Positions 38,935-52,108 of a stretch of 64,000 bases of DNA are shown piece after piece. The stretch comes from an uncultured Acidimicrobiia bacterium (GTDB lineage Bacteria; Actinomycetota; Acidimicrobiia; IMCC26256; PALSA-555): NCBI GenBank assembly GCA_963731815.1, contig CAVSWW010000011.1, forward strand, positions 343,466-407,465, read 5' to 3'. The translations under genes were made by a program, and so were the position numbers. The notes below the pieces were generated by a model, which saw only the letters and a list, made by a program, of their open reading frames with translations, had not been told where the DNA came from and searched no databases. Positions within the stretch are counted from its first letter, which is position 1, and each line of letters starts with the position of its first letter.

Positions 38935-41234
38935 GTGGCCCGAGCGAGCGACGCCACTCCACCGCCAGCTCGGGCTCACCGACGAGGAGCTCGCCGACAT
39001 CGTCGGGCTCCTGGGTCGCGACCCCAGCGAGCTCGAGCTCGCCATGTACGCCGTGATGTGGTCGGAGCACTGCTCCTACAAGTCGTCGAAGATCCACCTG
39101 AAACGGCTCCCCATCGAGGCACCGTGGGTGCTCGTCGGCCCGGGCGAGGGCGCCGGCGTGATCGACGTCGGCGACGGCCTCGCACTCGCGGTCCGCATCG
39201 AGAGCCACAACCACCCGTCCGCGATCGAGCCGTACCAGGGCGCGGCCACCGGCGTCGGCGGCATCATCCGCGACATCTTCTCGATGGGTGCCCGCCCGAT
39301 CGCGTTGATGGACCCGTTGCGCTTCGGACCGCTCGACGACCCGCGCACGCGGTACCTCTTCGAGGGCGTCGTGTCGGGCATCAGCGGCTACGGCAACTCC
39401 GTGGGCGTCCCGACGGTCGGCGGCGAAGCGGTGTTCGACTCCTGCTACCGCGACAACCCGCTCGTGAACGTGCTCTGCCTCGGCATCCTCGACGTCGACG
39501 ACCTCGCGCTTCGCGCGCGCCGAAGGCGCCGGCAACCTCGCGGTGCTGCTCGGGTCGTCGACCGGTCGTGACGGCATCGGCGGCGCGAGCGTGCTCGCGT
39601 CCGCGGCGTTCGACGCCGAGGCCGGCAGCGCTCCGCCCGTCGGTCCAGGTGGGCGACCCGTTCGAGGAGAAGCGGCTCATCGAGGCGACGCTCGAGCTGC
39701 TCGCGCAAGGGCTCGCGGTCGGCATGCAGGACCTCGGCGCGGCGGGCCTGTCGTGCGCGGCGTCCGAGACCGCGGCGAAGGCCGGTGCAGGCATGGACGT
39801 CGACGTCGCCCGCGTCGCCAAGCGCGAGCCGGGCATGAACGCGGTCGAGGTGCTGACCTCGGAGAGCCAGGAGCGGATGCTGGCGATCGTCGAGCCGGAG
39901 AACCTCGACCAGGTGCTCGCGCTGTGCGAGCGGTGGGAGGTGCGCGCGACGGTCGTCGGACAGGTCACGGACACCGGCCGCTTCCGCGTCTTCGACGGTC
40001 GCTTCGACGCCGTCGGCGTCGCCGGTGAGAACCCGCCACCGCCGAGCGGCGACGCCGCCCCATCGACGTCGTCGGACTCCCCGCCGCTCGCCGACATCCC
40101 CTGCGACAGCCTCGGCGACGGCCCGGTGTACGACCGTGAGCGCGCGCGGCCGGCCGACCAGGACGCGCGCCTCGCCGACGACCCTGCGCCCGCCCTGTTC
40201 GAGCGGTTCCCGGCCGGCAGCGACCTCGGCCCGGAGCTGCTCGCCCTGCTCGCGACGCCGACCGTCGCCGACAAGTCCTGGATCTGGCACCAGTACGACC
40301 ACCAGCTGTTCCTCAACACCGTCGTCGGGCCGGGCGGCGACGCGACCGTGCTCCGGCTGAAGGGCACGCCGCGCGCGATTGCCCTGTCGACCGACGGCAA
40401 GGCGCGCTTCTGCCGACTCGACCCCCGGACGGGTGCGCGGCTCGTCGTGCTCGAGGCGGCGCGCAACGTCGCGTGCGCCGGCGCCCAGCCGCGCGCCCTC
40501 GTCAACTGCCTCAACTTCGGCAACCCCGAGCACCCCGAGGTCATGTGGCAGTTCGCCGAGGTCATCGACGGCATGGCCGAGGCGTGCGCCGCGCTGAACA
40601 TCCCCGTGGTCGGGGGCAACGTGAGCTTCTACAACACGTCGGAAGGGCGCGACATCGACCCCACGCCGGTCGTGGGCGTCGTCGGCATCGTCGACTCGCT
40701 CGACGAGCCGCCCCCGGGCCCGGCGTTCGTGCCCGGCCACCACGTCGTCCTGCTCGGCACGACCGGAACCGACCTCGGTGGGTCGGAGTGGGCGTCGGTC
40801 CTGCACGGCCTCGACGCGGGACCGCCACCTGCGGCCGACCTCGACGTCGCCGCGGCGGTGCACGCGCTCGTGCGCGACCTGGTCGTCACCCGGCGCGTCG
40901 AGCGCGGTGCACGACGTCGCGGACGGCGGGCTCGCGGTCGCGATCACCGAGATGGCGATCCACGGAGACTGCGGCGCCGCCGTCGTGCCCGACGGGGACG
41001 TCCCGGCGCCCGCGTGGTGCTTCGGCGAGTCGGCGTCACGCGTCGTCGTGGCCGTCGACCCGGTCGGACCTCGACGACGTGCTCACCCGGGCGCGCGACG
41101 CGCGGATCCCGGCGCGCGATGCCGGCATGACGGGCGGCACGCGCGTGATCGTCGACGGTGTGCTGGACGTCGCGCTCGACGATGCCCGCGCCGCGTGGCG
41201 CGGCGCGATCCCGAGCCTCTTCGCCCCGACCTGA
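38935..41234 (+). pseudogene. purL: FGAM synthase subunit PurL, about 5 frame breaks as assembled
   Basis: GTG 38935 opens the gene. [45 protein letters not shown].. is in frame 2, [19 protein letters not shown] in frame 3, and VQVGDPFEEKRLIEATLEL..LNFGNPEHPEVMWQF..VVGGNVSFYN in frame 1. The tail runs through ORFs 40778 and 40473..41234. Breaks lie near 38960, 39520, 39640, 40900 and 41065. Confidence 0.85.
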
Positions 41235-41237
41235 CCG

Positions 41238-42846
41238 CTACGGCCCAGTCGTCGGCGGCGCCGTCGTCGGCGGAGCCGTGGTGGTCGTCGCCGGCGCCGT
41301 CGTGGTCGTCGCCTGCGTGCGAGGCGTCGTCCGCGGCGTGGTCGGCGGCACGGTCGTGATGGTCGTCGCGGTGGTGGTCGACGTCGACGACGTGGTCGTC
41401 GTGGTCGTGTCGTCGCCCCCGCCGCCGGCTGCGAGCACGACGCCGCCCCCGATGAGCAGCAGCGCCACCAGTGCGGCGGCGGCGATGATCAGTCCTCGCC
41501 GCTGCGGCGAGTTGTCCTCGGGGTCGCCCCCGCGACCACGCGGTGGCGGCGTCCCGCCTCCCGGGGGCGGACTGCCTCCCGGCGGCGGACCGACGACCAC
41601 AGGGTCGGTCGGCGCGCCCGAGCCGCCGCCGGCCTCGGCGCCGACGCCGGCGAGCTCGCCGGTCTCGTCAACGCCTCCTCCGCCGGCACCCGCGGCTGCC
41701 GCGGCCGCGGCAGCGGTGATGCCACCGGCCGCGGCGGCGGTCGCGACGCCCGCACCGGTCGCCGCGGCACCTGCGCGCCGGTCGGCCTCACCCGCGGCCG
41801 CGAGCGCCGCGCCGAGCGCGATTGCGTGCTTCGGGTGCACGTCGACGTTCACGGGACGGCCGAGGTCGGCCGTGATCATCTGCGAGACGAGCGGGATCCG
41901 CGACGACCCGCCGACGAGCAGCACCACCTTCACCTGGTCGGCGGTGACGCCTGCGCCCGTCGAGCGCGCGTCGCATCGCGTCGAGCGTCATCGACACCTG
42001 CGGGCGGATCATGTCCTCGAACTCGCCGCGCGTCAGCCGCACCTGGGTCTGCAGGTTCGGCAGCAGCACCGGGATCGACGCGTCGGTGTCGGACGACAGC
42101 GCCTCCTTGGCTGCGCTGCACTCCTGACGCAGACGGCCCACCGCGGCCATGGCCGTGGGGTCGTCCTCGTCGAGCTCTTCGAGCGCGCCACCGAGCGAGC
42201 GCTGCACGTGCGCGAACACCGCGGCGTCGAAGTCGATGCCGCCGAGGCGCTCGATGCCCTCGGGGGTGCCGAGGGTCTGCCAACCGGTCTCGGTCTTGCG
42301 GAGCACTGCCGAGTCGAACGTGCCGCCACCGAGGTCGTACACCGCGATCGTGTCGCCGACGTCGACACGCTCGGTCGATGCGTAGTGGATGGCGGCGGCC
42401 TCGGGCTCGGACAACGTGATCGCGTTGGTGAGGTTCGCCTGGCGGATCGCGTTGTCGAGCAGCTCGCGCTTGTACGCACCCCAGTTCGCGGGGTGTGACA
42501 CGGCGACGCGATCGGGCTCGCTGCCTTCGCGCTGCGCGACCTCGGCCACCACCCACCGGAGGAGCTCGCTCATCAGCAGCTCCGCCGAGTACGGCGAGCC
42601 GCCGAGGAAGATCGGCGTGGTGTCGCCGACGCGGCGCTTGAACTCGCGCGCGACCCGGTCGGGTTCGGTCGCCGCTCGGCGCTCGGCGGCCTCACCGGTG
42701 AGGACGGTGTCGGCGTCGCGCACGAGCACGATCGACGGGACCGAAGAGCTCCGGCTGCCGAGCGTGGCGACCTCCGTCTGGCCGTCACGCCAGGTCGCCG
42801 CCGCGGTGTAGGTCGTCCCGAGGTCGACTCCCAGCGAATACGCCAC
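41238..42846 (-). CDS. Hsp70-family NBD-only protein with Ala/Gly/Pro linker, one TM helix and Thr/Pro-rich tail; one frame break
   Basis: GTG 42846 follows GGAGAGGG and opens VAYSLGVDLGTTYTAAA... [12 protein letters not shown] and VLLVGGSSRIPLV are actin-like ATPase motifs. There is no substrate-binding domain. The break lies near 41950. The C-terminal part (ORF 41238..41933) has an AAAAGGITAAAAAAAAGAGGGG linker, the TM helix LIIAAAALVALLLIGGGVVLAA, then TTTTTTSSTSTTTATTITTVPPTTPRTTP... Confidence 0.8.
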
Positions 42847-42942
42847 GTCCTCATCCCTCTCCGGTCGTCGGCCGTCGGCGACGGCCTCGTTGCGCGGCAC
42901 AGTAGGCGAACCCCACCCCACCCGTCCTCGGGGTCAGACCCA

Positions 42943-42970
42943 GAGATCCGGAATGCCATTAGGGGATCTC
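42943..42970 (+). promoter_or_regulatory. inverted repeat in the divergent Hsp70-like / IniB-N intergenic region (candidate operator)
   Basis: GAGATCC-N14-GGATCTC sits in a locally AT-richer stretch (CCGGAATGCCATTAGGGG) between the divergent starts at 42846 and 43030. Confidence 0.3.
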
Positions 42971-43029
42971 CCCGATGGAACGACCGGCGGCGCTGCGTAC
43001 CCTGCGAGAGCAGAAGGGAGGAGGAAGCC

Positions 43030-43809
43030 GTGAGCGGCGGGACGTTCCTGGAGATGGCCCAGGACCTGGTGCACGACGCCGGGGCCAAGGCTGCGTTCGA
43101 CGCGGACCCCGACGGGTTCCTGGCCGAGCGCGGCTTCGACGGCCTCACAGCCGCCGACGTCACCGACGCCGTCGGCTTCGTCGCCGACACCCTTCCCGCC
43201 GACGCCGCCCGCCAGCTCACCGAGACGGAGGGCGACGGCGAGGGCCTGGCCCGCCTGGCCCAGCTCGACCCGAGCGACGTCGACTCCGAGCAGGAGCCCG
43301 ACTTCCTCGACAACGACCCGAGCGGGGAGCTGGATCTCCCCGACGAGAGCGCCGCGCCGGACGAACCCGGCACCGAAGACGCAGCAGGAGAGGAGGAGAC
43401 GATGGCAGCGGAGGCCGACGATGACGATCTCGACCCGGATCCCGTGGCCACGCACCACGTGGGGGCAGAGGAAGGTGGGTTCTGGCGGCAGGACGAGAAC
43501 GAGCAGGACCCGGGCTTCGGCGTCGGGTACACCCCGGAGGACGTCGACGACGTGTCGCCGGCAGCGCCGGAGATCGCGAACGTGCTCGACCACCCGCTCG
43601 ACCTGACGCTCGACGCGACGCATGTGCCTGATCTCGCCCTCGACGCGTCCGACCCGATCAGTGAGGCCTTCGCCTACGCCGAGCACGACGACACGGCCGC
43701 GCACCATGCGGACGCCGTCGAGCACGACGCGGGGCACGAGGTGCACGACGCCGGTGCGGACCACCACCACGACGGCGACCACGACGGTCACCTCGACCTC
43801 GACCTCTGA
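43030..43809 (+). CDS. IniB-N-terminal-domain protein with a long acidic disordered region and Asp/His-rich C-terminus
   Basis: GTG 43030 follows GGGAGGAGGAAG. The N-terminus FLEMAQDLVHDAGAKAAFDADPDGFLAERGFDGLTAADVTDAV parallels the N-termini of the two downstream paralogs and my memory of the IniB/Rv0340 N-terminal domain. The rest is Asp/Glu/Pro-rich and ends HHADAVEHDAGHEVHDAGADHHHDGDHDGHLDLDL. Confidence 0.65.
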   Translation: MSGGTFLEMAQDLVHDAGAKAAFDADPDGFLAERGFDGLTAADVTDAVGFVADTLPADAARQLTETEGDGEGLARLAQLDPSDVDSEQEPDFLDNDPSGELDLPDESAAPDEPGTEDAAGEEETMAAEADDDDLDPDPVATHHVGAEEGGFWRQDENEQDPGFGVGYTPEDVDDVSPAAPEIANVLDHPLDLTLDATHVPDLALDASDPISEAFAYAEHDDTAAHHADAVEHDAGHEVHDAGADHHHDGDHDGHLDLDL

Positions 43810-44008
43810 GCCGCCGCCCGAGGGAACGCGTGGGAGCTGGATGGCGGTCTGTTCATCGACGCGTCACCGACCCGCCGCTAGACCGACGCGCCGTCTTCCC
43901 GTATGGTCCCGGCACTGGAAGCGGGGAGTCTTCGATCCGTAGGGCGCGGGCGATCTGCACATCTCATCGTGGCTCCCGGTTCGCGGGAGCACGATCGCAG
44001 GAGGGGAA

Positions 44009-44580
44009 ATGCCGATCACACAGGTGGACATCGAGGGTGCCGAGAAGCTGCTCGAGGACCTCATGGGCAACCAGGAAGCAGCGGAGAGCTACTCGAAGGA
44101 CCCGGAAGGCTGGCTCAACGAGCACGGCTACGCCGACCTGAACCCCGAGGCGGTGGCGCAGTGCGGCGCGGCCTACGGCGGTGCGGGTGTGGCGACCGCG
44201 GGTGCCGGGGCCGCGAGCTCGGGCGTCGCGGGCGTGGTCGCGCAGCTCGACCCGGTCGTCTACAACAACTACTACGAGATCGACAACTCGATCACGAACA
44301 ACATCGAGAACCACGGGGACCTGGACTTCAACCAGCAGATCGGCGACGGGAACGTCAACGTCAACGACTCGACATCGACGGTGACATCCAGACCCAGACC
44401 GGTGACGGGATCCAGATCAACGACTCGGACATCGACAACTCGAACCTGTCCAGTGGTGACGACAACCAGCAGGCGATCGACCAGTCGACGAACACCGACG
44501 TCGACATCGACGTCGGCGCGCCGGAGGTGCCCACGAACGGCGCAACGAACGGCGAAGCCGAGGAGCTGGACCTGACCTAG
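44009..44580 (+). CDS. IniB-N-terminal-domain protein with Ala/Gly segment and Asn/Asp-rich repeat tail, paralog A, one frame break
   Basis: ATG 44009 follows GGAGGGGAA and opens MPITQVDIEGAEKLLEDLMGNQEAAESYSKDPEGWLNEHGYADLNPEAVAQC... This is followed by AYGGAGVATAGAGAASSGVAG, then VVYNNYYEIDNSITNNIENHGDLDFNQQIGDGNVNVNDS. The frame breaks at 44371/44372. The tail IDGDIQTQTGDGIQINDSDIDNSNLSSGDDNQQAIDQSTNTDVDIDV..EELDLT is in frame 1, with a stop at 44578-44580. Confidence 0.7.
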
Positions 44581-44615
44581 GCCGTCGGCTCCGTCCGACG
44601 CCACCGATCACGCGC

Positions 44616-44638
44616 GGCCCCGGACCCGGTCCGGGGCC
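44616..44638 (+). terminator. GC-rich hairpin after iniB-like paralog A (terminator or attenuator candidate)
   Basis: GGCCCCGGA-cccgg-TCCGGGGCC forms a 9-bp stem 36 nt after the stop. There is no U-tract. Confidence 0.4.
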
Positions 44639-44726
44639 GTCGCAAGCTCGACCGTGTGCTGTAAGCGGGCGAGGGGGGTCGGGCTCAGTCCTTCGGACTG
44701 GGACGACCACACAGGAGGGAACAGCT

Positions 44727-45321
44727 ATGCCGATCACGCAGGTGGACATCGAGGGTGCCGAGCAGCTGCTCGAGGACCTCATGGGCAACCAGGCCGAGGC
44801 CGAGGCGTACGCCAAGGACCCGCAGGGTTGGATCACCGAGCACGGGTACGAGAACGTGAACCCGGAGGCGGTGGCGCAGTGCGGTGCCGCGTACGGCGGT
44901 GCCGGTGCGGCGTCGGCGGGTGCCGGTGCGGCGACCTCGGGTGTCGCGGGTGTCGTGGCCCAGCTCGATCCGGTCGTCTACAACAACTACTACGACGTCG
45001 ACAACTCGATCACGAACAACATCGAGAACCACGGGAACCTGGACTTCAACCAGCAGATCGGCGACGGGAACGTCAACGTCAACGACTCGAGACATCGACG
45101 GTGACATCCAGACCCAGACGGGCGACGGGATCCAGATCAACGACTCGACGATCGACGACTCGAACCTGTCCAGTGGTGACGACAACCAGCAGGCGATCGA
45201 CCAGTCGACGAACACCGATCTCGACATCGACGTCGACGGTGGGCTCGAGCCCGTTCGGACGCTCGAGGCCGACGCGCCCGACGCGGCGGCGCCACCCGAA
45301 GACCTCGACGACGTCAACTGA
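44727..45321 (+). CDS. IniB-N-terminal-domain protein, paralog B, one frame break at the homologous site
   Basis: About 85% identical to paralog A by eye, with the same N-terminus and repeats. The frame breaks at 45089-45091 (GACTCG-A-GACATCGAC). The tail DIDGDIQTQTGDGIQINDSTIDDSNLSSGDDNQQAIDQSTNTDLDIDV..PEDLDDVN is in frame 1, with a stop at 45319-45321. Confidence 0.7.
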
Positions 45322-45344
45322 CGGAGCGAGCTCGCGCGCTCGAC

Positions 45345-45369
45345 GCGGCCCCGGATCCACCGGGGCCGC
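45345..45369 (+). terminator. GC-rich hairpin after iniB-like paralog B, upstream of DLP1 (terminator or attenuator candidate)
   Basis: GCGGCCCCGG-atcca-CCGGGGCCGC forms a 10-bp stem 24 nt after the stop and 44 nt before the DLP1 ATG. There is no U-tract. Confidence 0.4.
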
Positions 45370-45412
45370 GCCTCGGCGCGTCGCGCGACTGCGTGAGCCA
45401 GGATGGCGCCCG

Positions 45413-47303
45413 ATGACCACGACCTCTGAGCCCGCGTCGCCGGCCGAAGCCGAAGAGCACCCGACGCCGCCCAGCCCGGCCGTCGACGCGACCATGGCCG
45501 CGCTGCACCTCACGACGAAGGCCACCACGGCCTACGGCCGGGACGACCTCTCCTCGCGGCTCAACATGGCCAAGCGCCGCCTCGACGACCCGGCGTTCCG
45601 TGTCCTCGTGGTCGGTGAGTTCAAGCAGGGCAAGAGCTCGCTCGTGAACGCGCTCCTGAACGCGCCGGTCTGCCCGGTCGACGACGACATCGCGACGTCG
45701 GCGCCCACCGCGGTGCAGTACGCCGAGCAGCTCGGCGCCCGGGTGCTCTACGCGCCGACCGACGACGATCCCGATGCCGAGCCCGAGACGGTCGACATCC
45801 CCGTCGACCGCGTGCGGGAGTACGTGACCGAGGCCGCGAACCCGGCGAACGAGCGGCGCGTCCAGTGGGTGGAGATCGGGGTGCCGCGCAAGCTCCTCGC
45901 GGACGGGCTGGTGCTCGTCGACACGCCCGGTGTCGGTGGCCTCGGCTCGGTGCACGGCGCGATCACCGCCGCCGCGCTCCCGATGGCCGACGGCGTCCTG
46001 TTCCTCTCGGACGCGTCGCAGGAGTTCTCCGAGCCCGAGATGACGTTCCTGAAGCAGGCGCTCTCGCTGTGCCCGAACGTGTGCTGCGTGCTGACGAAGA
46101 CCGACTTCTACCCGGCGTGGCGCAAGATCCTGGACCTCGACACCGAACACCTCGCGGCCCAGAAGCTCGACCTCCAGATCCTGCCGGTGTCGTCGGTCCT
46201 CCGGCAGCAGGCCCTCGAGACCGAAGATCGGGAGCTCAACACCGAGTCCGGGTTCCCGGCACTCCTCGAGTCGCTGCGCACCGAGATCGTCGGTGATGGC
46301 GAGCGCCGCGGGGTGCAGGCCGTCTGCTCGGAGATCCTCGCGGTCGTCGACCAGCTCGAGTCGCACTTCCGCTCCGAGGAGAAGGCGCTCGGTGGCACCG
46401 CGGAGAGCGCCGCCGAGCTCCAGCGCGACCTCGACCTGGCCCGCGCGAAGTCGGAGAAGCTCAAGAGCCAGACCGCGCGGTGGGCCCAGACGCTCAACGA
46501 CGGCATCGGCGACCTGAGCTCCGACGTCGACCACGACCTCCGCGGCCGCTTCCGCGAGATCATCCGCGAGGCCGACGAGGTCATCGAGGAGGGCGACCCG
46601 GCCGAGTTCTGGGAGGAGTTCGAGCCGTGGCTCTACCGCCGCACGGCCGAAGACGTCGTGTACTCCTTCCGTGTCCTCCAGGGACGCGCGGAGGAGCTCA
46701 GCGCGCAGGTCGCGGACCTGTTCGAGGTCGACCAGGAGGAGCTCGCGTTCCACCCCGACCTCATCGAGGGAGGCAGTGCGCTGGGTCGAGCCAACGCCAC
46801 CGCGTCGGCCGAGTTCAAGATCATGACCAAGGGCCAACGGATGATGACCGGCTTCCGCGGCGGGTACATCGGCGTGCTGATGTTCGGCGCGCTCGGTTCG
46901 ATGATCGGCCTCGCCATCGGTGCGCTGCCGGTCGCGGCCGGCCTGTTGATGGGCCGCAAGTCGCTGCGCGACGAGCAGGAGCGGCAGCTCAGCATCCGGC
47001 GCACGACGGCGAAGAACGCGATCCGCAAGTACCTCGACGAGGCGCAGTTCCTCGCAGGCAAAGAGCAGCGCGACACGCTGCGCCTGGTCCAGCGCCAGCT
47101 CCGCGACTACTACAGCACGCCGCGCCGAGGAGCTGCACCGCTCGGTCGCGGAGGCAGCCGGCGCGGCGGCGCAGGCACTGAAGTCCGACGAGGCGACGCG
47201 CACCAAGCGCCTGAAAGACGTGCAGTCGGAGCTCCAGCGGATCCTCGGGCTGCGCAAGATGGCGCTCGAGGCCCGTTCGATGGCGACCGAGGAAGAGACG
47301 TGA
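45413..47303 (+). CDS. iniA: dynamin-like GTPase with membrane hairpin (IniA-like), one frame break
   Basis: ATG 45413. GTPase motifs are G1 GEFKQGKSSLVNALL, G3 LVDTPGVGG and G4 TKTD. It has a long helical stalk and a hydrophobic paddle, GGYIGVLMFGALGSMIGLAIGALPVAAGLLMG. An extra base near 47118 breaks the frame. The tail RAEELHRSVAEAAGAAAQALKSDE..LEARSMATEEET is in frame 3 with a stop at 47301-47303. Total length is about 630 aa. The gene symbol rests on architecture and context only. Confidence 0.75.
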
Positions 47304-48766
47304 GCGACGCCCTGCTCGCGCGGGTGAAGGGGCTGCTCGACGACGCCGTCGGCGTCTACCAGGGCACGGAAGTCGCCGATCGACTGGCGGCCCAGCGGGC
47401 CCGGCTCGACGAGCCGCTGCGCGTCGCGATCGCCGGCCGCGTGAAGGCGGGGAAGTCGACGCTGCTGAACGCGCTCGTCGGCGAGCCGCTCGCGCCGACC
47501 GACGAGGGCGAGTGCACGCGCATCGTCACCTGGTACCACGACGGCGTCACCTACCGCGTGACGATCCACCCGCGGCAGGGCGAGGCCCACCCCGCGCGCT
47601 TCGACCGCCTCGACGACTCCGTGGTCGTCGACCTCGCCGGGCTCTCGCCCGACGACGTCGAGCGTCTCGACGTGGAGTGGCCGTCGTCGTCCCTCCGCGA
47701 GATGACGTTGATCGACACGCCGGGCATCGGCGCGCTCTCGGCCACGCCGTCGGCGGCCACCGTCGAGTTCCTCACCCCGGGTGAGGGGCGCGAGACCGAC
47801 GCCGACGCGGTGCTCTACCTGATGAAGCACCTCCACACGACCGACGTCGACTTCCTCTCGACGTTCCACGACGAGGAGGTGTCCCAGGCGACGCCGGTGA
47901 ACGCCGTGGCGGTGCTCTCACGCGCCGACGAGGTCGGCGGCGGACGGCTCGACTCCCTCGAGTCGGCCGCGACGGTCGCGGCCCGGTACGCACACGACGC
48001 GAAGGTGCGGCGCCTCGCGCAGACGGTCGTGCCCGTCGCCGGGCTGCTCGCGCAGACGGGCGTCACGCTCCGCGAGGCCGAGTACCAGGCCCTCGCGACC
48101 CTCGGACGCGCACCCGCCGACGACGTCGACAAGCTCCTCCTCTCCGCGGACCGGTTCGCCAACTCCGATGCGCACGTGGGCCTGACGACGATGGAGCGCC
48201 AGGCGCTGCTCGAGCGCTTCGGGCTCTTCGGCGTACGGCTCGTCGTCCATCTGATCCGTGAGGGCACGGTGACGAACGCCGATGCGCTGTCGAAGGAGCT
48301 CGAGTCACGCAGCGGGCTGCCGGAGCTGCGCGACGTGCTGCTCACACAGTTCGCCGAGCGGCGCGACCTGCTGAAGGCGCGCTCCGGCCTGCTCGCAGTC
48401 GAGTCCGCGGCCCGCGCCGATGGCCGCCCCGGATCGGACGCGCTGCTCGCGGACGTCGAGCAGATCACCGCGGGTGCGCACGAGCTGGCCGAGCTCCAGC
48501 TGCTCGCGTCGCTGCGAGCCGGCTCCGTGGACGCGAAGCCCGACGACCTGGAGGCGATGGAGCGTCTCGTCGGTGGCGAGGGTGCGACCACGCCGGCGCG
48601 CCTCGGGCTGTCGCCCGACGCCGACGCCGACGCGGTGCGTGCTGCGGCCGGCGCGGAGCTCGCGCGCTGGCAGAAGCGCGCCGAGAGCCCGATGGCGACT
48701 CGGGAGGCGGCGGACGCGGCGCGACTGCTGTGCCGGACCTGCGAGGCGATGCTCGCCTCGGCCTGA
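47300..48766 (+). CDS. iniC: dynamin-like GTPase without TM segment (IniC-like)
   Basis: GTG 47300 overlaps the DLP1 stop (GTGA). G1 is GRVKAGKSTLLNALVG, G3 is LIDTPGIGA, and a G4-like SRAD is present. The gene is intact at 488 aa. The gene symbol rests on architecture and context only. Confidence 0.75.
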   Translation: MSDALLARVKGLLDDAVGVYQGTEVADRLAAQRARLDEPLRVAIAGRVKAGKSTLLNALVGEPLAPTDEGECTRIVTWYHDGVTYRVTIHPRQGEAHPARFDRLDDSVVVDLAGLSPDDVERLDVEWPSSSLREMTLIDTPGIGALSATPSAATVEFLTPGEGRETDADAVLYLMKHLHTTDVDFLSTFHDEEVSQATPVNAVAVLSRADEVGGGRLDSLESAATVAARYAHDAKVRRLAQTVVPVAGLLAQTGVTLREAEYQALATLGRAPADDVDKLLLSADRFANSDAHVGLTTMERQALLERFGLFGVRLVVHLIREGTVTNADALSKELESRSGLPELRDVLLTQFAERRDLLKARSGLLAVESAARADGRPGSDALLADVEQITAGAHELAELQLLASLRAGSVDAKPDDLEAMERLVGGEGATTPARLGLSPDADADAVRAAAGAELARWQKRAESPMATREAADAARLLCRTCEAMLASA

Positions 48767-49482: not shown

Positions 49483-51984
49483 CTAGGTGTCGGCGGCGGC
49501 GAGGGTCGTGCGAAGCCCGGCGAGCAGCTCGGCGCGACTGGTCGCGCCGAGCTTCTGGCGGATCCGCGCGACGTGGTGCTCGACCGTCTTGGGCGAGATG
49601 AACAGCATCGCCCCGATCTCCTTGTGCGTGAGCCCGTCGACGACGCACGCCGCGACCTCGCGCTCGCGTGCCGAGAGGACCGTGCCGGTCGGCGCGCCCG
49701 ACTCGTCGACGACGGGGAGCGTCCCGTGCAGCTCGCGGGCGCGGCCCAGCAGCGACGCGTGTCGCATCCGCGTCGTCGGCGCGGATCGCGGCGTGTCCGA
49801 CGAGCCGGGACGCCTCCCAGACGAGGCCGGCCTGCTCCAGGCCCTCCACGCCGGTGTCGAGCATCGTCGAGTCGCCGGCGACGACGCCGCCCCACGCCTC
49901 GGCCGCCGCGTCGAGCCCGGCGAGGCGTGGATGCGCCGGCTGCGTGGCCTGGACCGCGACGACTGCGTCGCCGAGCGCCGCGTGGTCGTCGGCTGCGATC
50001 GCCGCTTCGAGGCGTGCCCACGCGAACGGGCGCATCCAGAGCCCCGGCCGATCGAGGCCCTCGACGACCGCCTCGAGCTCGGCCTCCCGCTCGCTCATCA
50101 CGTCGCGCTGGCGGAGCCGGGCCGCGGCGACGAGGAGCTCGGTGAGCGCGGGGAGGAGGTAGAGGTCGCCGCGCGTCGCGGCGATGGCCGGCGTCGCGCT
50201 GTCCCAGGCCGACGTGAGGCGACCGACGTCACCGAGGCGACGGGCGAGACCGACCGAGAGCGCGGCCCGGAGCAGCGCGTCGCGCGTCGTGCCCGGCCCG
50301 CGGGCCTCATCGAGGACGCGCTGCACGCGGTCGTACCGTCCCGCACGCAGCGCGGCGAGACCGGCGAGGAGCCGGTGGCGCATCGCGGCCGCGGGACCAC
50401 CCACGCCGGCGTCGAGCGCGCGGGTGGCCAGCAGCTCGGCGCCGTCGCTGTCGCCCGTGACCAGCGCCACGAGTGCTCCCAGCGCGTGCGGCGTCTCCGG
50501 CAGGACGGTCGTGGCCGTCCCCGCCTCGAGCAGGTCCGCGGCCTCGCCTGCGGCCCGCCGGGCCACGACGACGTCTCCGGCACTCATCGCGACGGCGACG
50601 TCCCCGAGGAGTCGCGCGACGTCGGCGGCGAGCGTCCCGGGCGCCGTGAGTGCGGCGGGGCCGCTCGCGGGACGGCCGACGGCCACGCCGGCGACCGCAC
50701 CCAGGGCGCGGATCGCGTCGTCGGGCAGGCTCGGGTGCCCGGTCGTCGTGTCGTACGCGCGCCCCGCACGTGCCCACAGGCCGCGGCGCGCGAGCACGCC
50801 GGCGAGCACGATCGCGCCCCGCGCCACCGAGTCGGGCGGGCCGGCCATCGCGCCGTCGGCGAGGGCGACCGCCGCGTCCTCGTCTCCGGCGAGCGCGGCC
50901 GCCTCGGCTCGCGCGCCCCGAGCGCATCGGCGTCCGCGCCCGCGTCGACGGCCCGCTCGAACAGCTCCGCCGCGACCTCCGGCGCGTCCGCGAGCTGCGC
51001 TTCGCCCGCAGCCACCAGCGTGTCGGCCACGTCGGAGCCGCGCGCCTCCGACGCGACGAGATGCTCGGCGACGTGCGCCGGCGGAGCACCACGCGCGGCG
51101 AGGAGCTCGGCGAGGCGGCGGTGCATGTCGCGCCGAGTGGCGGCGTCCGTCCGCGCCTCGACCACCGACGCGACGATCGACACCGGTTCGTCGTGGCCAG
51201 GGACGAGCACACCGACGCAGGTGAGCTCGGCCCACAGGTTCGGCACGTCCTTGGGCTTCACGCCGACGAGTGCCGCGAGCAGCTCGTCGTCGGGACCGGT
51301 GCCGAGGGCCAGCGCGACGAGCGCCTCACGCGCTTCGGGTGACAAGTCGCTGGTCGCCGCGACGACGGTGTCGGTCGCGGCGACCGTGAGCGCGTCCTCG
51401 TCCTCGTCCTCGGGCCACGCGGCGGCCAGCGTGTCCACCAGTCGTGCGTGTCCGGCCGTCCGGTCGAGCAGCGCGTCGACGACGCCCGCATCGAGCTGGT
51501 GACCGGCGACGCGCGCGGCGCGCTCGGCCACGTCCGCGTCGTCGAGGGGGTCGGGCGCCACGATCGTGCCCGCGCGCGCGACGGCTCCGACGATCTCGTC
51601 GCCGTCGCGCGGCACCGCCGGTCGTGTCGCCACGATCACGCCGACGTCGCGCTGCGCGGCGTCCTCCGTGAGCGCCGCGAGCACGCGGCGCGACGCGTCG
51701 TCGAGCCAGTGCGCGTCGTCGACGACGAGCACCGCCCCGGCGCAGCGCTCGGCGAGCTGCGTCCGACCCGAGCGTTCACCCGAGGAGCCCTTGCCCGGGA
51801 CGTTCCCGTCGAAGAGATCCTCGAACGCGGCGAAGCGCACGTCGCGATCCGCGCGCCGTCCGGCGACCCGGACGGCGCGGATGTCGCGTGCTTCGAGCGT
51901 CTCGACGATGCAGGTGAGGGTCTCGGTCCGCCCGGTGCCGTCAGGCGCGACGAGCACGGCGACGGGGAGCGGCGCGTCGCCCAC
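49483..51984 (-). CDS. large P-loop NTPase / helical-repeat / LuxR-HTH regulator (LAL or STAND type, IniR-like), two frame breaks
   Basis: GTG 51984. It has a degenerate Walker A (VLVAPDGTGRTETL) and Walker B (AVLVVDDAHWLDDAS), followed by about 550 aa of Ala/Leu-rich helical repeats and a C-terminal LuxR HTH (LSAREREVAACVVDGLTHKEIGAMLFISPKTVEHHVARIRQKLG). Frames switch near 50930 and 49770. Total length is about 833 aa. Confidence 0.75.
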
Positions 51985-52108
51985 GACGCGCGCGGCGGTC
52001 CGCTCGACGTGACCCGGCCAGCCGCGCCATCACGCAGCTCCGACCGCGGTCGCGATCCCGCGAGTCCCCGCCGCGCTCCCCACGACGCGAATCCCCACCA
52101 CGAAGACC

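Follow-up and report, generated by a model that had tools for sequence, protein, structure and literature searches.

Two tandem, extremely acidic IniB-type proteins with a conserved Asn/Asp/Ile-rich core in an ini-like dynamin operon of an uncultured Acidimicrobiia bacterium

In a stretch of 64 kb from contig CAVSWW010000011.1 of an uncultured Acidimicrobiia bacterium, referred to below as the window, two tandem paralogous genes, P1 and P2, lie on the forward strand at 44009-45321 (all positions are counted along the window). These extremely acidic paralogs are IniB-type accessory genes of an ini-like operon, which includes IniR-like, Rv0340-like, IniB-like, IniA and IniC members. IniA and IniC are bacterial dynamins which are induced in mycobacteria by cell-envelope stress and by isoniazid. 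According to the overall picture, to which a probability of about 0.6 is assigned, P1 and P2 represent a conserved IniB-type accessory gene of this dynamin operon, their Asn/Asp/Ile-rich core is a conditional interaction or assembly module, and the reading-frame breaks found in both genes are errors of the assembly.

Both proteins are built of a helical N-terminal domain, an Ala/Gly linker, a VVYNNYY-DNSITNNIENHG motif, three units starting with G(D/E)G, and a variable acidic tail, and their net charges are about -36 (P1) and -38 (P2). The shared beginning MPITQVDIEGAE is followed by the Ala/Gly stretch and then by VVYNNYY(E/D)(I/V)DNSITNNIENHG(D/N)LDFNQQIGDGNVNVNDS. P1 proceeds as VVYNNYYEIDNSITNNIENHGDLDFNQQIGDGNVNVNDS and, past a -1 change of frame, as DIDGDIQTQTGDGIQINDSDIDNSNLSSGDDNQQAIDQSTNTDVDIDV; P2 differs from this only by D/V and N variants and requires a change of +1. 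Past the change both continue as DIDGDIQTQT, GDGIQINDS.ID.SNLSS and GDDNQQAIDQSTNTD.DIDV and then enter dissimilar acidic tails. All the peptides quoted in the original prediction were located in the window by translation of P1 and P2, and the span that it had marked, 44260-45250, runs from the core and tail of P1 across an intergenic hairpin to the head and core of P2.

The core (residues 83-168, 86 residues) consists of 21% Asp, 17% Asn and 12-13% Ile, has a net charge of -19 or -20 and contains no Lys, Arg or Pro. The stretches rich in Asn, Asp and Ile, at about 44255-44514 and 44973-45234, are conspicuous also at the DNA level: the two lowest-GC 200-nucleotide segments of the whole window are 44256-44455 (0.550) and 44968-45167 (0.560), both about 4 standard deviations below the mean of 0.714 (standard deviation 0.040), and the highest A content is found in the same two places (0.315 against a mean of 0.147), which confirms the proposed A-rich island. 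The GC content of the core is 0.46-0.54 at the first, 0.15-0.33 at the second and 0.91-1.0 at the third codon position (GC3). Since GC3 stays at this level while the first two positions fall, the dip is an effect of the amino acids encoded, via the codons AAC, GAC and ATC, and not of foreign DNA; the further proposal that the composition is determined at the protein level is thereby upheld.

An origin of the low-GC stretch in horizontally acquired or mobile DNA within a GC-rich genome would be in line with GC and A contents that deviate further than anywhere else in the window; however, its GC3 equals that of the host genes with the AT shift confined to codon positions 1 and 2, the stretch sits within a conserved open reading frame (ORF) whose position is kept at five related loci, and its synonymous divergence is ordinary, with an identity at fourfold sites of 0.62 in the core versus 0.54 in the N-domain. 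Horizontal transfer, rejected by the codon-position analysis, is thus left with next to no probability. Unusual constraint on synonymous sites, or an overlapping element, was also rejected, the identity at twofold sites being 0.92 in core and N-domain and the fourfold values as given above. The near-identity of the core DNA is explained by amino-acid conservation together with the GC3 bias on twofold codons.

The core is conserved in a residue-specific manner. The frequency of the major residue is 0.82 in the NNYY-DNSITNN-NQQ segment, 0.66-0.67 in the three units, 0.71 in the N-domain and 0.29 in the C-terminal tail; within the segment of residues 83-111 the entropy is 0.67 bits and V84, Y85, N86, Y88, T96 and G103 are invariant. 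In the core as a whole 10 of 90 alignment columns are invariant and 18 are nearly invariant, while Asn positions retain Asn in 73% of the sequences and Asp positions retain Asp in 60%, compared with 34% in the tail. As judged from this alignment, purifying selection acts on specific residues of the core, which is more than ordinary low complexity.

The proposed repeats of about 18-20 residues were supported for part of the core. Starts of the type G[DES][GDN] are spaced by 17-20 residues across the family (e.g., 20/18, 18/18, 17/18/17, and 20/18/17), and in a profile-profile comparison with hhalign units 2 and 3 were related with 72% probability, a score that was never reached in 120 column shuffles. 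The proposal fits unit 4 only marginally, its relation to the others being weak (of 120 shuffles, 4 reach its score with unit 2 and 12 its score with unit 3), and ungapped autocorrelation of the profile gave peaks at lags 18, 20, and 38 with a z-score of only about 2.1. An element [VI][ND][DNQ]S recurs at residues 91, 118, 137, and 157, with an additional IDDS at 142. More stretches of the GD/DDS type are found in more distant members of the family (P0099, P0103, and P0105, the last with 4 matched stretches). In some relatives, e.g., one containing YYEVDNSVDNSVDIVDNSITNN, one to three additional tandem DNS[VI] copies precede the DNSITNN motif, and these copies are a small-scale repeat expansion within the most conserved segment.

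The core is rare. With a core-only profile, no more than 13 clusters were retrieved at E ≤ 1e-3 from 1.84 billion representative proteins. When P1 and P2, both repaired, and five relatives were scanned with Pfam at E-values up to 1-10, no relevant family was found, the sole match being a chance one to FOXO-TAD; no NCBIfam family was matched by the core, a sequence-profile search of the PDB gave chance matches in the Ala/Gly linker only, and PADLOC reported nothing for the IniB-like protein. From these searches the tail emerges as a new, narrowly distributed and undescribed variant of the IniB family, as had been suspected from the sequence.

The kinship with IniB is indicated by the N-domain and by the position of the genes. 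With the NCBIfam model IniB_NTERM (NF038175) P1 scored 18.9 bits (E 1.1e-3) and P2 20.1 bits (E 4.4e-4), both below the curated cut-off of 40 bits, and 51 of the 56 family members matched at E ≤ 0.01 (best E 3.3e-6); for some members a faint precomputed match to PF27122 “IniB” is also on record. Membership in the family by gene position is borne out, since P1 and P2 lie upstream of iniA and iniC with an iniR-like and an Rv0340-like gene in the cluster. The IniA protein of the intact ortholog in L004, one of the loci of related metagenome-assembled genomes (MAGs), matches M. smegmatis IniA (6J72) over its full length with E 7.7e-127. The IniR-like protein of L004 matches NF038181 (reg_ATPase_IniR) with E 5.5e-66; the match spans positions 52-826 of the 827 in the profile and stays under the equivalog cut-off. 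Besides this confirmation in L004, the regulator was aligned in L007. The Rv0340-like gene of L004 scores 34.5 bits with IniB_NTERM. The gene at 43030-43809, besides its IniB_NTERM match, has a weak match to NF038176 (Rv0340_fam, E 5.5e-4), is related to the family N-domain by hhalign (E 3e-4) and is syntenic in 5 loci. The order Hsp70-like, Rv0340-like, IniB-like, IniA, IniC is found at five loci (L004, L007, L009, L010, and L011) from four MAGs; the L009 contig ends inside IniA, and IniC is not visible there. In PADLOC the dynamins are matched by LeoA and LeoBC, which is the outcome to be expected of bacterial dynamin-like proteins. The label “IniB-like” given in the original prediction is supported by these neighbours together with the consistent sub-threshold domain matches.

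In the assembled sequence both genes are broken inside unit 2. P1 lacks one base between 44371 and 44372 (the site reads GACTCG and, after the break, ACATCGAC) and is restored by a -1 frame change; P2 carries a surplus base at 45090 (site GACTCGaGACATCGAC) and calls for a +1 change. Read in frame, the site would give GACTCGGACATCGAC. In a codon-position GC plot the high-GC3 phase moves exactly at both breaks, which means that the frames originally proposed are the coding frames. The distance from GGN to CAGAC at this site is 47 nucleotides in all 12 other copies compared (both in L001, both in L012, and those of L002-L008), against 46 in P1 and 48 in P2 of the window. The relatives read as one continuous ORF and do not end at the frame break, so that the tail frame is conserved. 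A search with repaired P2 gave 98 homologs, mostly of 185-210 residues; P0001 is an intact ORF of 197 residues which is 98% identical to repaired P2 over the full length, and P0007 is an intact P1-type relative of 190 residues.

Such breaks are not confined to P1 and P2. About 15 further frame switches were found in conserved genes of the window between 34 and 52 kb by comparison with the intact orthologs of L004 and L007, which are short-read MAGs; purL (38939-41228) is read in five frame segments, and switches were seen as well in the Hsp70-like gene, the IniR-like gene and the C-terminus of IniA. For the window sequence this appears to amount to an indel about every 1.2 kb. Its closest relative, L001 (96.5% identical), is a long-read-like contig and also rich in indels: 81 gap openings were counted over 11 kb. 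The broken ORFs of P1 and P2 have entered public protein sets, both from one contig, as P0045 (188 residues with an out-of-frame Ser/Thr/Arg-rich tail) and P0110 (shortened to 125 residues); comparable frame errors are seen in P0102 and P0104 from other assemblies. Because the relatives are in frame, intact proteins exist and some 15 other switches occur in conserved genes, the breaks in both paralogs are most likely indel errors of the assembly.

A biological origin of the breaks, by programmed ribosomal frameshifting, phase variation or parallel pseudogenisation at a common hot spot, might be considered since they fall at the same homologous site, -1 in one paralog and +1 in the other, a coincidence with a chance of about 1e-3 at the overall break rate of the window, and since the out-of-frame reading of P2 enters a rare AGA codon and meets a stop 4 codons later. 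This origin is nevertheless very improbable: the comparison copies are all in frame, including both of the 96.5%-identical L001, neither a slippery heptamer nor a simple repeat is present at the site, the opposite directions would require two separate mechanisms, and the other switches affect conserved genes such as purL and IniA, related long-read-like contigs being indel-rich as well. Programmed frameshifting in particular was judged unlikely on the absence of a slippery site, the opposed shifts and the in-frame relatives. The coincidence itself needs a systematic cause, and a context-specific consensus error or mixing of reads between the paralogs is likely; no convincing shared motif was found at the 15 frame-switch sites, though several lie near TCG- or CTCGAC-like contexts. 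The public gene calls of 188 and 125 residues, and much of the window, require indel correction before their annotation is trusted.

Several observations weigh against the picture of a conserved IniB-type accessory protein with a conditional core. In a full-length AlphaFold2 (AF2) run with a 56-sequence family alignment the N-domain is helical at residues 5-56 with a predicted local distance difference test score (pLDDT) of 80-88, a further helix spans residues 73-88 and the Ala/Gly linker has a pLDDT of 44-61 at its start; the core reaches a pLDDT of only 46-67 and has no strands. When modelled alone, the core forms one weak hairpin (VYNNY / ITNNI) with a predicted template modelling score (pTM) of 0.25, and the five models, with mean pLDDT of 38-66, disagree. 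No structural neighbour was found, and the net charge of -19 or -20 over 86 residues disfavours autonomous folding. In addition, the IniB_NTERM scores of P1, P2, and P0001 (about 19-20 bits) lie under the curated cut-off, 3 of 8 genomic loci hold a solo copy that has no dynamin gene nearer than 10 kb, so that the link to IniA/IniC is not obligatory, and the coincidence of the two breaks described above has to be set on the same side. The AF2 runs describe ion-free monomers, and conditional folding with cations, partners or self-copies lies beyond these tools.

The same structural results agree with a reading in which the core is an intrinsically disordered polyanionic region with a few conserved short linear motifs, the spacing of 18-20 residues being a structurally meaningless remnant of an old duplication. 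The low pLDDT without strands, the discordant core-only models, the lack of structural neighbours, a high negative charge without Lys or Arg, the low z-score of the ungapped periodicity and the barely related unit 4 all speak for such a region; however, the residue-specific conservation is level with the folded N-domain and far above the variable C-terminal tail, Asn and Asp are not freely exchanged, and 86 residues without proline, in which Ile/Val alternate with polar residues, are beta-strand-like rather than typical of a disordered acidic tail. Disorder is therefore a possible reading, though on the unlikely side. It overlaps with the following one, and both may be taken as sub-readings of the core.

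The original prediction compared the core with beta-solenoid coils, and a self-assembling beta-solenoid or beta-arch module, functional-amyloid-like or Ca-roll-like, would have one coil per G(D/E)G-started unit. The spacing kept across the family, the homology of units 2 and 3, the more numerous GD/DDS-type stretches of distant relatives and the STAND ATPase encoded in the cluster (in L004 and the window) are consistent with such a module, and so is the composition: a surplus of N, G, V, I, and Q with a shortage of P, K, and L is what Dyrka et al. (bioRxiv 10.1101/2020.01.06.895854) report for beta-helical proteins and for the motifs of bacterial amyloid signalling. Yet neither AF2 run predicts a periodic structure, the RTX nonapeptide and the curlin-type motif occur in 0 of 105 family proteins and no HemolysinCabind or Curlin_rpt Pfam match was obtained at E-values up to 10, neither the STAND protein nor any other part of the window and loci holds the motif a second time, so that the pairing of amyloid signalling is absent, and stacking about 20 acidic side chains in register would require neutralisation of their charge. 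By the lack of a predicted periodic structure the claim of a solenoid fold is weakened, within the limits of ion-free monomer models, and this reading is considered unlikely.

Under the preferred reading of a conditional module, a polar core free of Pro, Lys, and Arg with alternating Ile/Val would serve as a specific interaction or assembly module, probably becoming ordered and beta-rich only on binding divalent cations, a partner (IniA/IniC), the membrane or its own copies. Through its IniB_N head the protein may dock to itself or to the system of IniA/IniC, and the head might thereby tie the core module to the dynamin machinery under envelope stress. A more specific proposal, that the core is a new cation-dependent or self-templating beta-arch/solenoid assembly domain, located in the cytoplasm or at the membrane and acting with IniA/IniC, is speculative and quite improbable; if true, it would offer the first structural handle on the role of IniB-type proteins in membrane remodelling under envelope stress.

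The coordinates of the features are collected in Table 1.

Table 1. Features of P1, P2, and neighbouring genes in the window (a slash within a peptide marks the frame break).
Feature	Position	Strand	Basis or remark
P1, IniB-like, 190 aa after repair	44009..44580	+	stop codon 44578-44580
P1 N-terminal helical domain, residues 1-56, IniB_NTERM-like	44009..44176	+	NF038175 match, AF2 helices
P1 Ala/Gly linker, residues 57-82	44177..44254	+	translation
P1 VVYNNYYEIDNSITNNIENHG-DLDFNQQI segment, residues 83-111	44255..44341	+	conservation, highest within the protein
P1 unit 2, GDGNVNVNDS/DIDGDIQTQT, frame break inside	44342..44400	+	profile comparison
P1 unit 3, GDGIQINDSDIDNSNLSS	44401..44454	+	hhalign against unit 2
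P1 unit 4, GDDNQQAIDQSTNTDVDIDV	44455..44514	+	weak relation to units 2 and 3; invariant G150, D158
P1 C-terminal tail, acidic, variable	44515..44577	+	major-residue frequency 0.29; AF2 pLDDT <45
GC-rich hairpin, 11-bp perfect stem (GGCCCCGGACC/GGUCCGGGGCC)	44612..44643	+	between P1 stop and P2 start
P2, IniB-like, 197 aa after repair	44727..45321	+	stop codon 45319-45321
P2 VVYNNYYDVDNSITNNIENHG-NLDFNQQI segment, residues 83-111	44973..45059	+	conservation
P2 units 2-4: GDGNVNVNDS(a)DIDGDIQTQT, GDGIQINDSTIDDSNLSS, GDDNQQAIDQSTNTDLDIDV	45060..45234	+	extra base at 45090
Hsp70-like ATPase, divergent, C-terminal membrane segment, Thr/Pro-rich tail, frame breaks	41238..42977	-	Pfam HSP70 E 2e-34
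Rv0340-like gene with IniB_N domain, acidic His/Asp-rich tail	43030..43809	+	NF038175 34.5 bits, E 1.4e-8
IniA-like dynamin GTPase, frame break near 47120	45413..47300	+	tblastn synteny
IniC-like dynamin-family GTPase	47297..48766	+	6J72 E 8.4e-9; BDLP 2J68 E 1e-7
IniR-like STAND ATPase, LuxR-type DNA-binding domain, frame breaks	49510..52020	-	alignment to L004 ortholog
Frame switches	~34108, ~34232, ~35747, ~38238, ~39507, ~39645, ~40890, ~41069		comparison with L004/L007
Frame switches, continued	~41961, ~47123, ~49001, ~49756, ~50918		comparison with L004/L007

Shine-Dalgarno-like sequences are present separately ahead of P1 and of P2. The 88-nucleotide stretch 44578-44665, which includes the intergenic hairpin, has a folding energy of -45.3 kcal/mol (z-score -2.65), and none of 200 shuffles was as stable; the hairpin is without a U tract and was missed by the terminator scan, and a scan of 42900-45500 for sigma-70 promoters and intrinsic terminators gave no match. 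The Hsp70-like gene divergently adjoins the ini-like cluster, a position kept in all five syntenic loci (L004, L007, L009, L010, and L011).

The tandem duplication is specific to the lineage of the window (L001 and L012). The core DNA of the two copies (44243-44511 and 44961-45231) is nearly identical within a genome and different between genomes, with the core variant DSDID in the window and L001 and ESTIE in L012. Copies which are alike within and unlike between genomes are a mark of concerted evolution, and this pattern indicates gene conversion between the tandem copies. In P0002 a P1-type head is joined to a P2-type tail. Extra solo copies, one or two per MAG and far from dynamin genes, are found in L005, L006, and L008 (the same as L002/L003), and the solo copy of L002 is flanked by genes for an esterase and a PIG-L deacetylase. 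The family is multi-copy, and its tie to iniA/iniC is not a strict one. The lineage is high in GC and the relatives are mostly labelled Acidimicrobiia; the MAGs with the closest intact orthologs, CAZCUD01 and CAZHKE01, bear the seemingly doubtful label “uncultured Bifidobacteriaceae bacterium”.

Among known repeat proteins, those of the RTX type form a beta-roll from the nonapeptide GGxGxDxUx, with two nonapeptides per 18-residue turn. The core resembles them in being rich in Gly and Asp, in a period near 18, in the absence of basic residues and in the disorder expected without cations; unlike them it has only three units, and AF2 builds no roll. The 0 of 105 count given above for the nonapeptide refers to its strict form, searched as a regular expression, and inspection of the sequence by eye, no prediction having been run, showed neither a signal peptide nor a secretion signal at the C-terminus. 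In the curli protein CsgA, as in the core, imperfect repeats about 20 residues long keep Gln, Asn, and Gly (e.g., QxGDGN in the core); the curlin consensus that was absent from the family is S-x5-Q-x-G-x-G-N-x-A-x3-Q, and, unlike in curli, csgB/E/F/G-like genes were not noticed in the locus and a signal peptide was not evident by eye.

A further likeness is to the bacterial amyloid signalling sequences (BASS) and the fungal pseudorepeats of the HET-s type: a helical N-domain is joined by a flexible linker to C-terminal pseudorepeats, each about 20-25 residues long, in which N, Q, G, V, and I are over-represented while K and P are scarce, and in L004 and the window a STAND ATPase gene is close by. 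P1 and P2 differ from BASS in the very high Asp content and net negative charge, in the IniB_N-like N-domain and in the nature of the STAND protein, which is an IniR-type transcription regulator. The core profile, when searched against six-frame translations of the window and 12 loci, matches the IniB-like genes alone, and on this search the notion that the IniR-like STAND protein carries a paired motif, as in amyloid signalling, was dismissed.

The closest comparison is with the mycobacterial iniBAC system. The function of IniB is still unknown (PMC10240201), and the M. tuberculosis protein is described as glycine-rich (PMC7350357). Like M. tuberculosis IniB (Rv0341) and Rv0340, P1 and P2 consist of a small IniB_N-type N-domain followed by a low-complexity or repetitive C-terminal region; the gene stands directly upstream of iniA and iniC, an IniR-type STAND/LuxR regulator is encoded in the cluster, and two consecutive IniB_N genes are present, as with Rv0340 and Rv0341. 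The differences are that the N-domains score below the curated cut-off, that the lineage is labelled Acidimicrobiia and not Mycobacterium, and that a long Gly/Ala-rich C-terminal region as in Rv0341 is lacking: the Ala/Gly part has only about 26 residues (57-82), the remainder has 21% Asp, 17% Asn and 12% Ile, and the tail is a conserved acidic Asn/Asp/Ile-rich module. With the IniB-type head and the operon context kept and the glycine-rich tail replaced, the family provides a compact model of about 190 residues for the role of the variable IniB tails.

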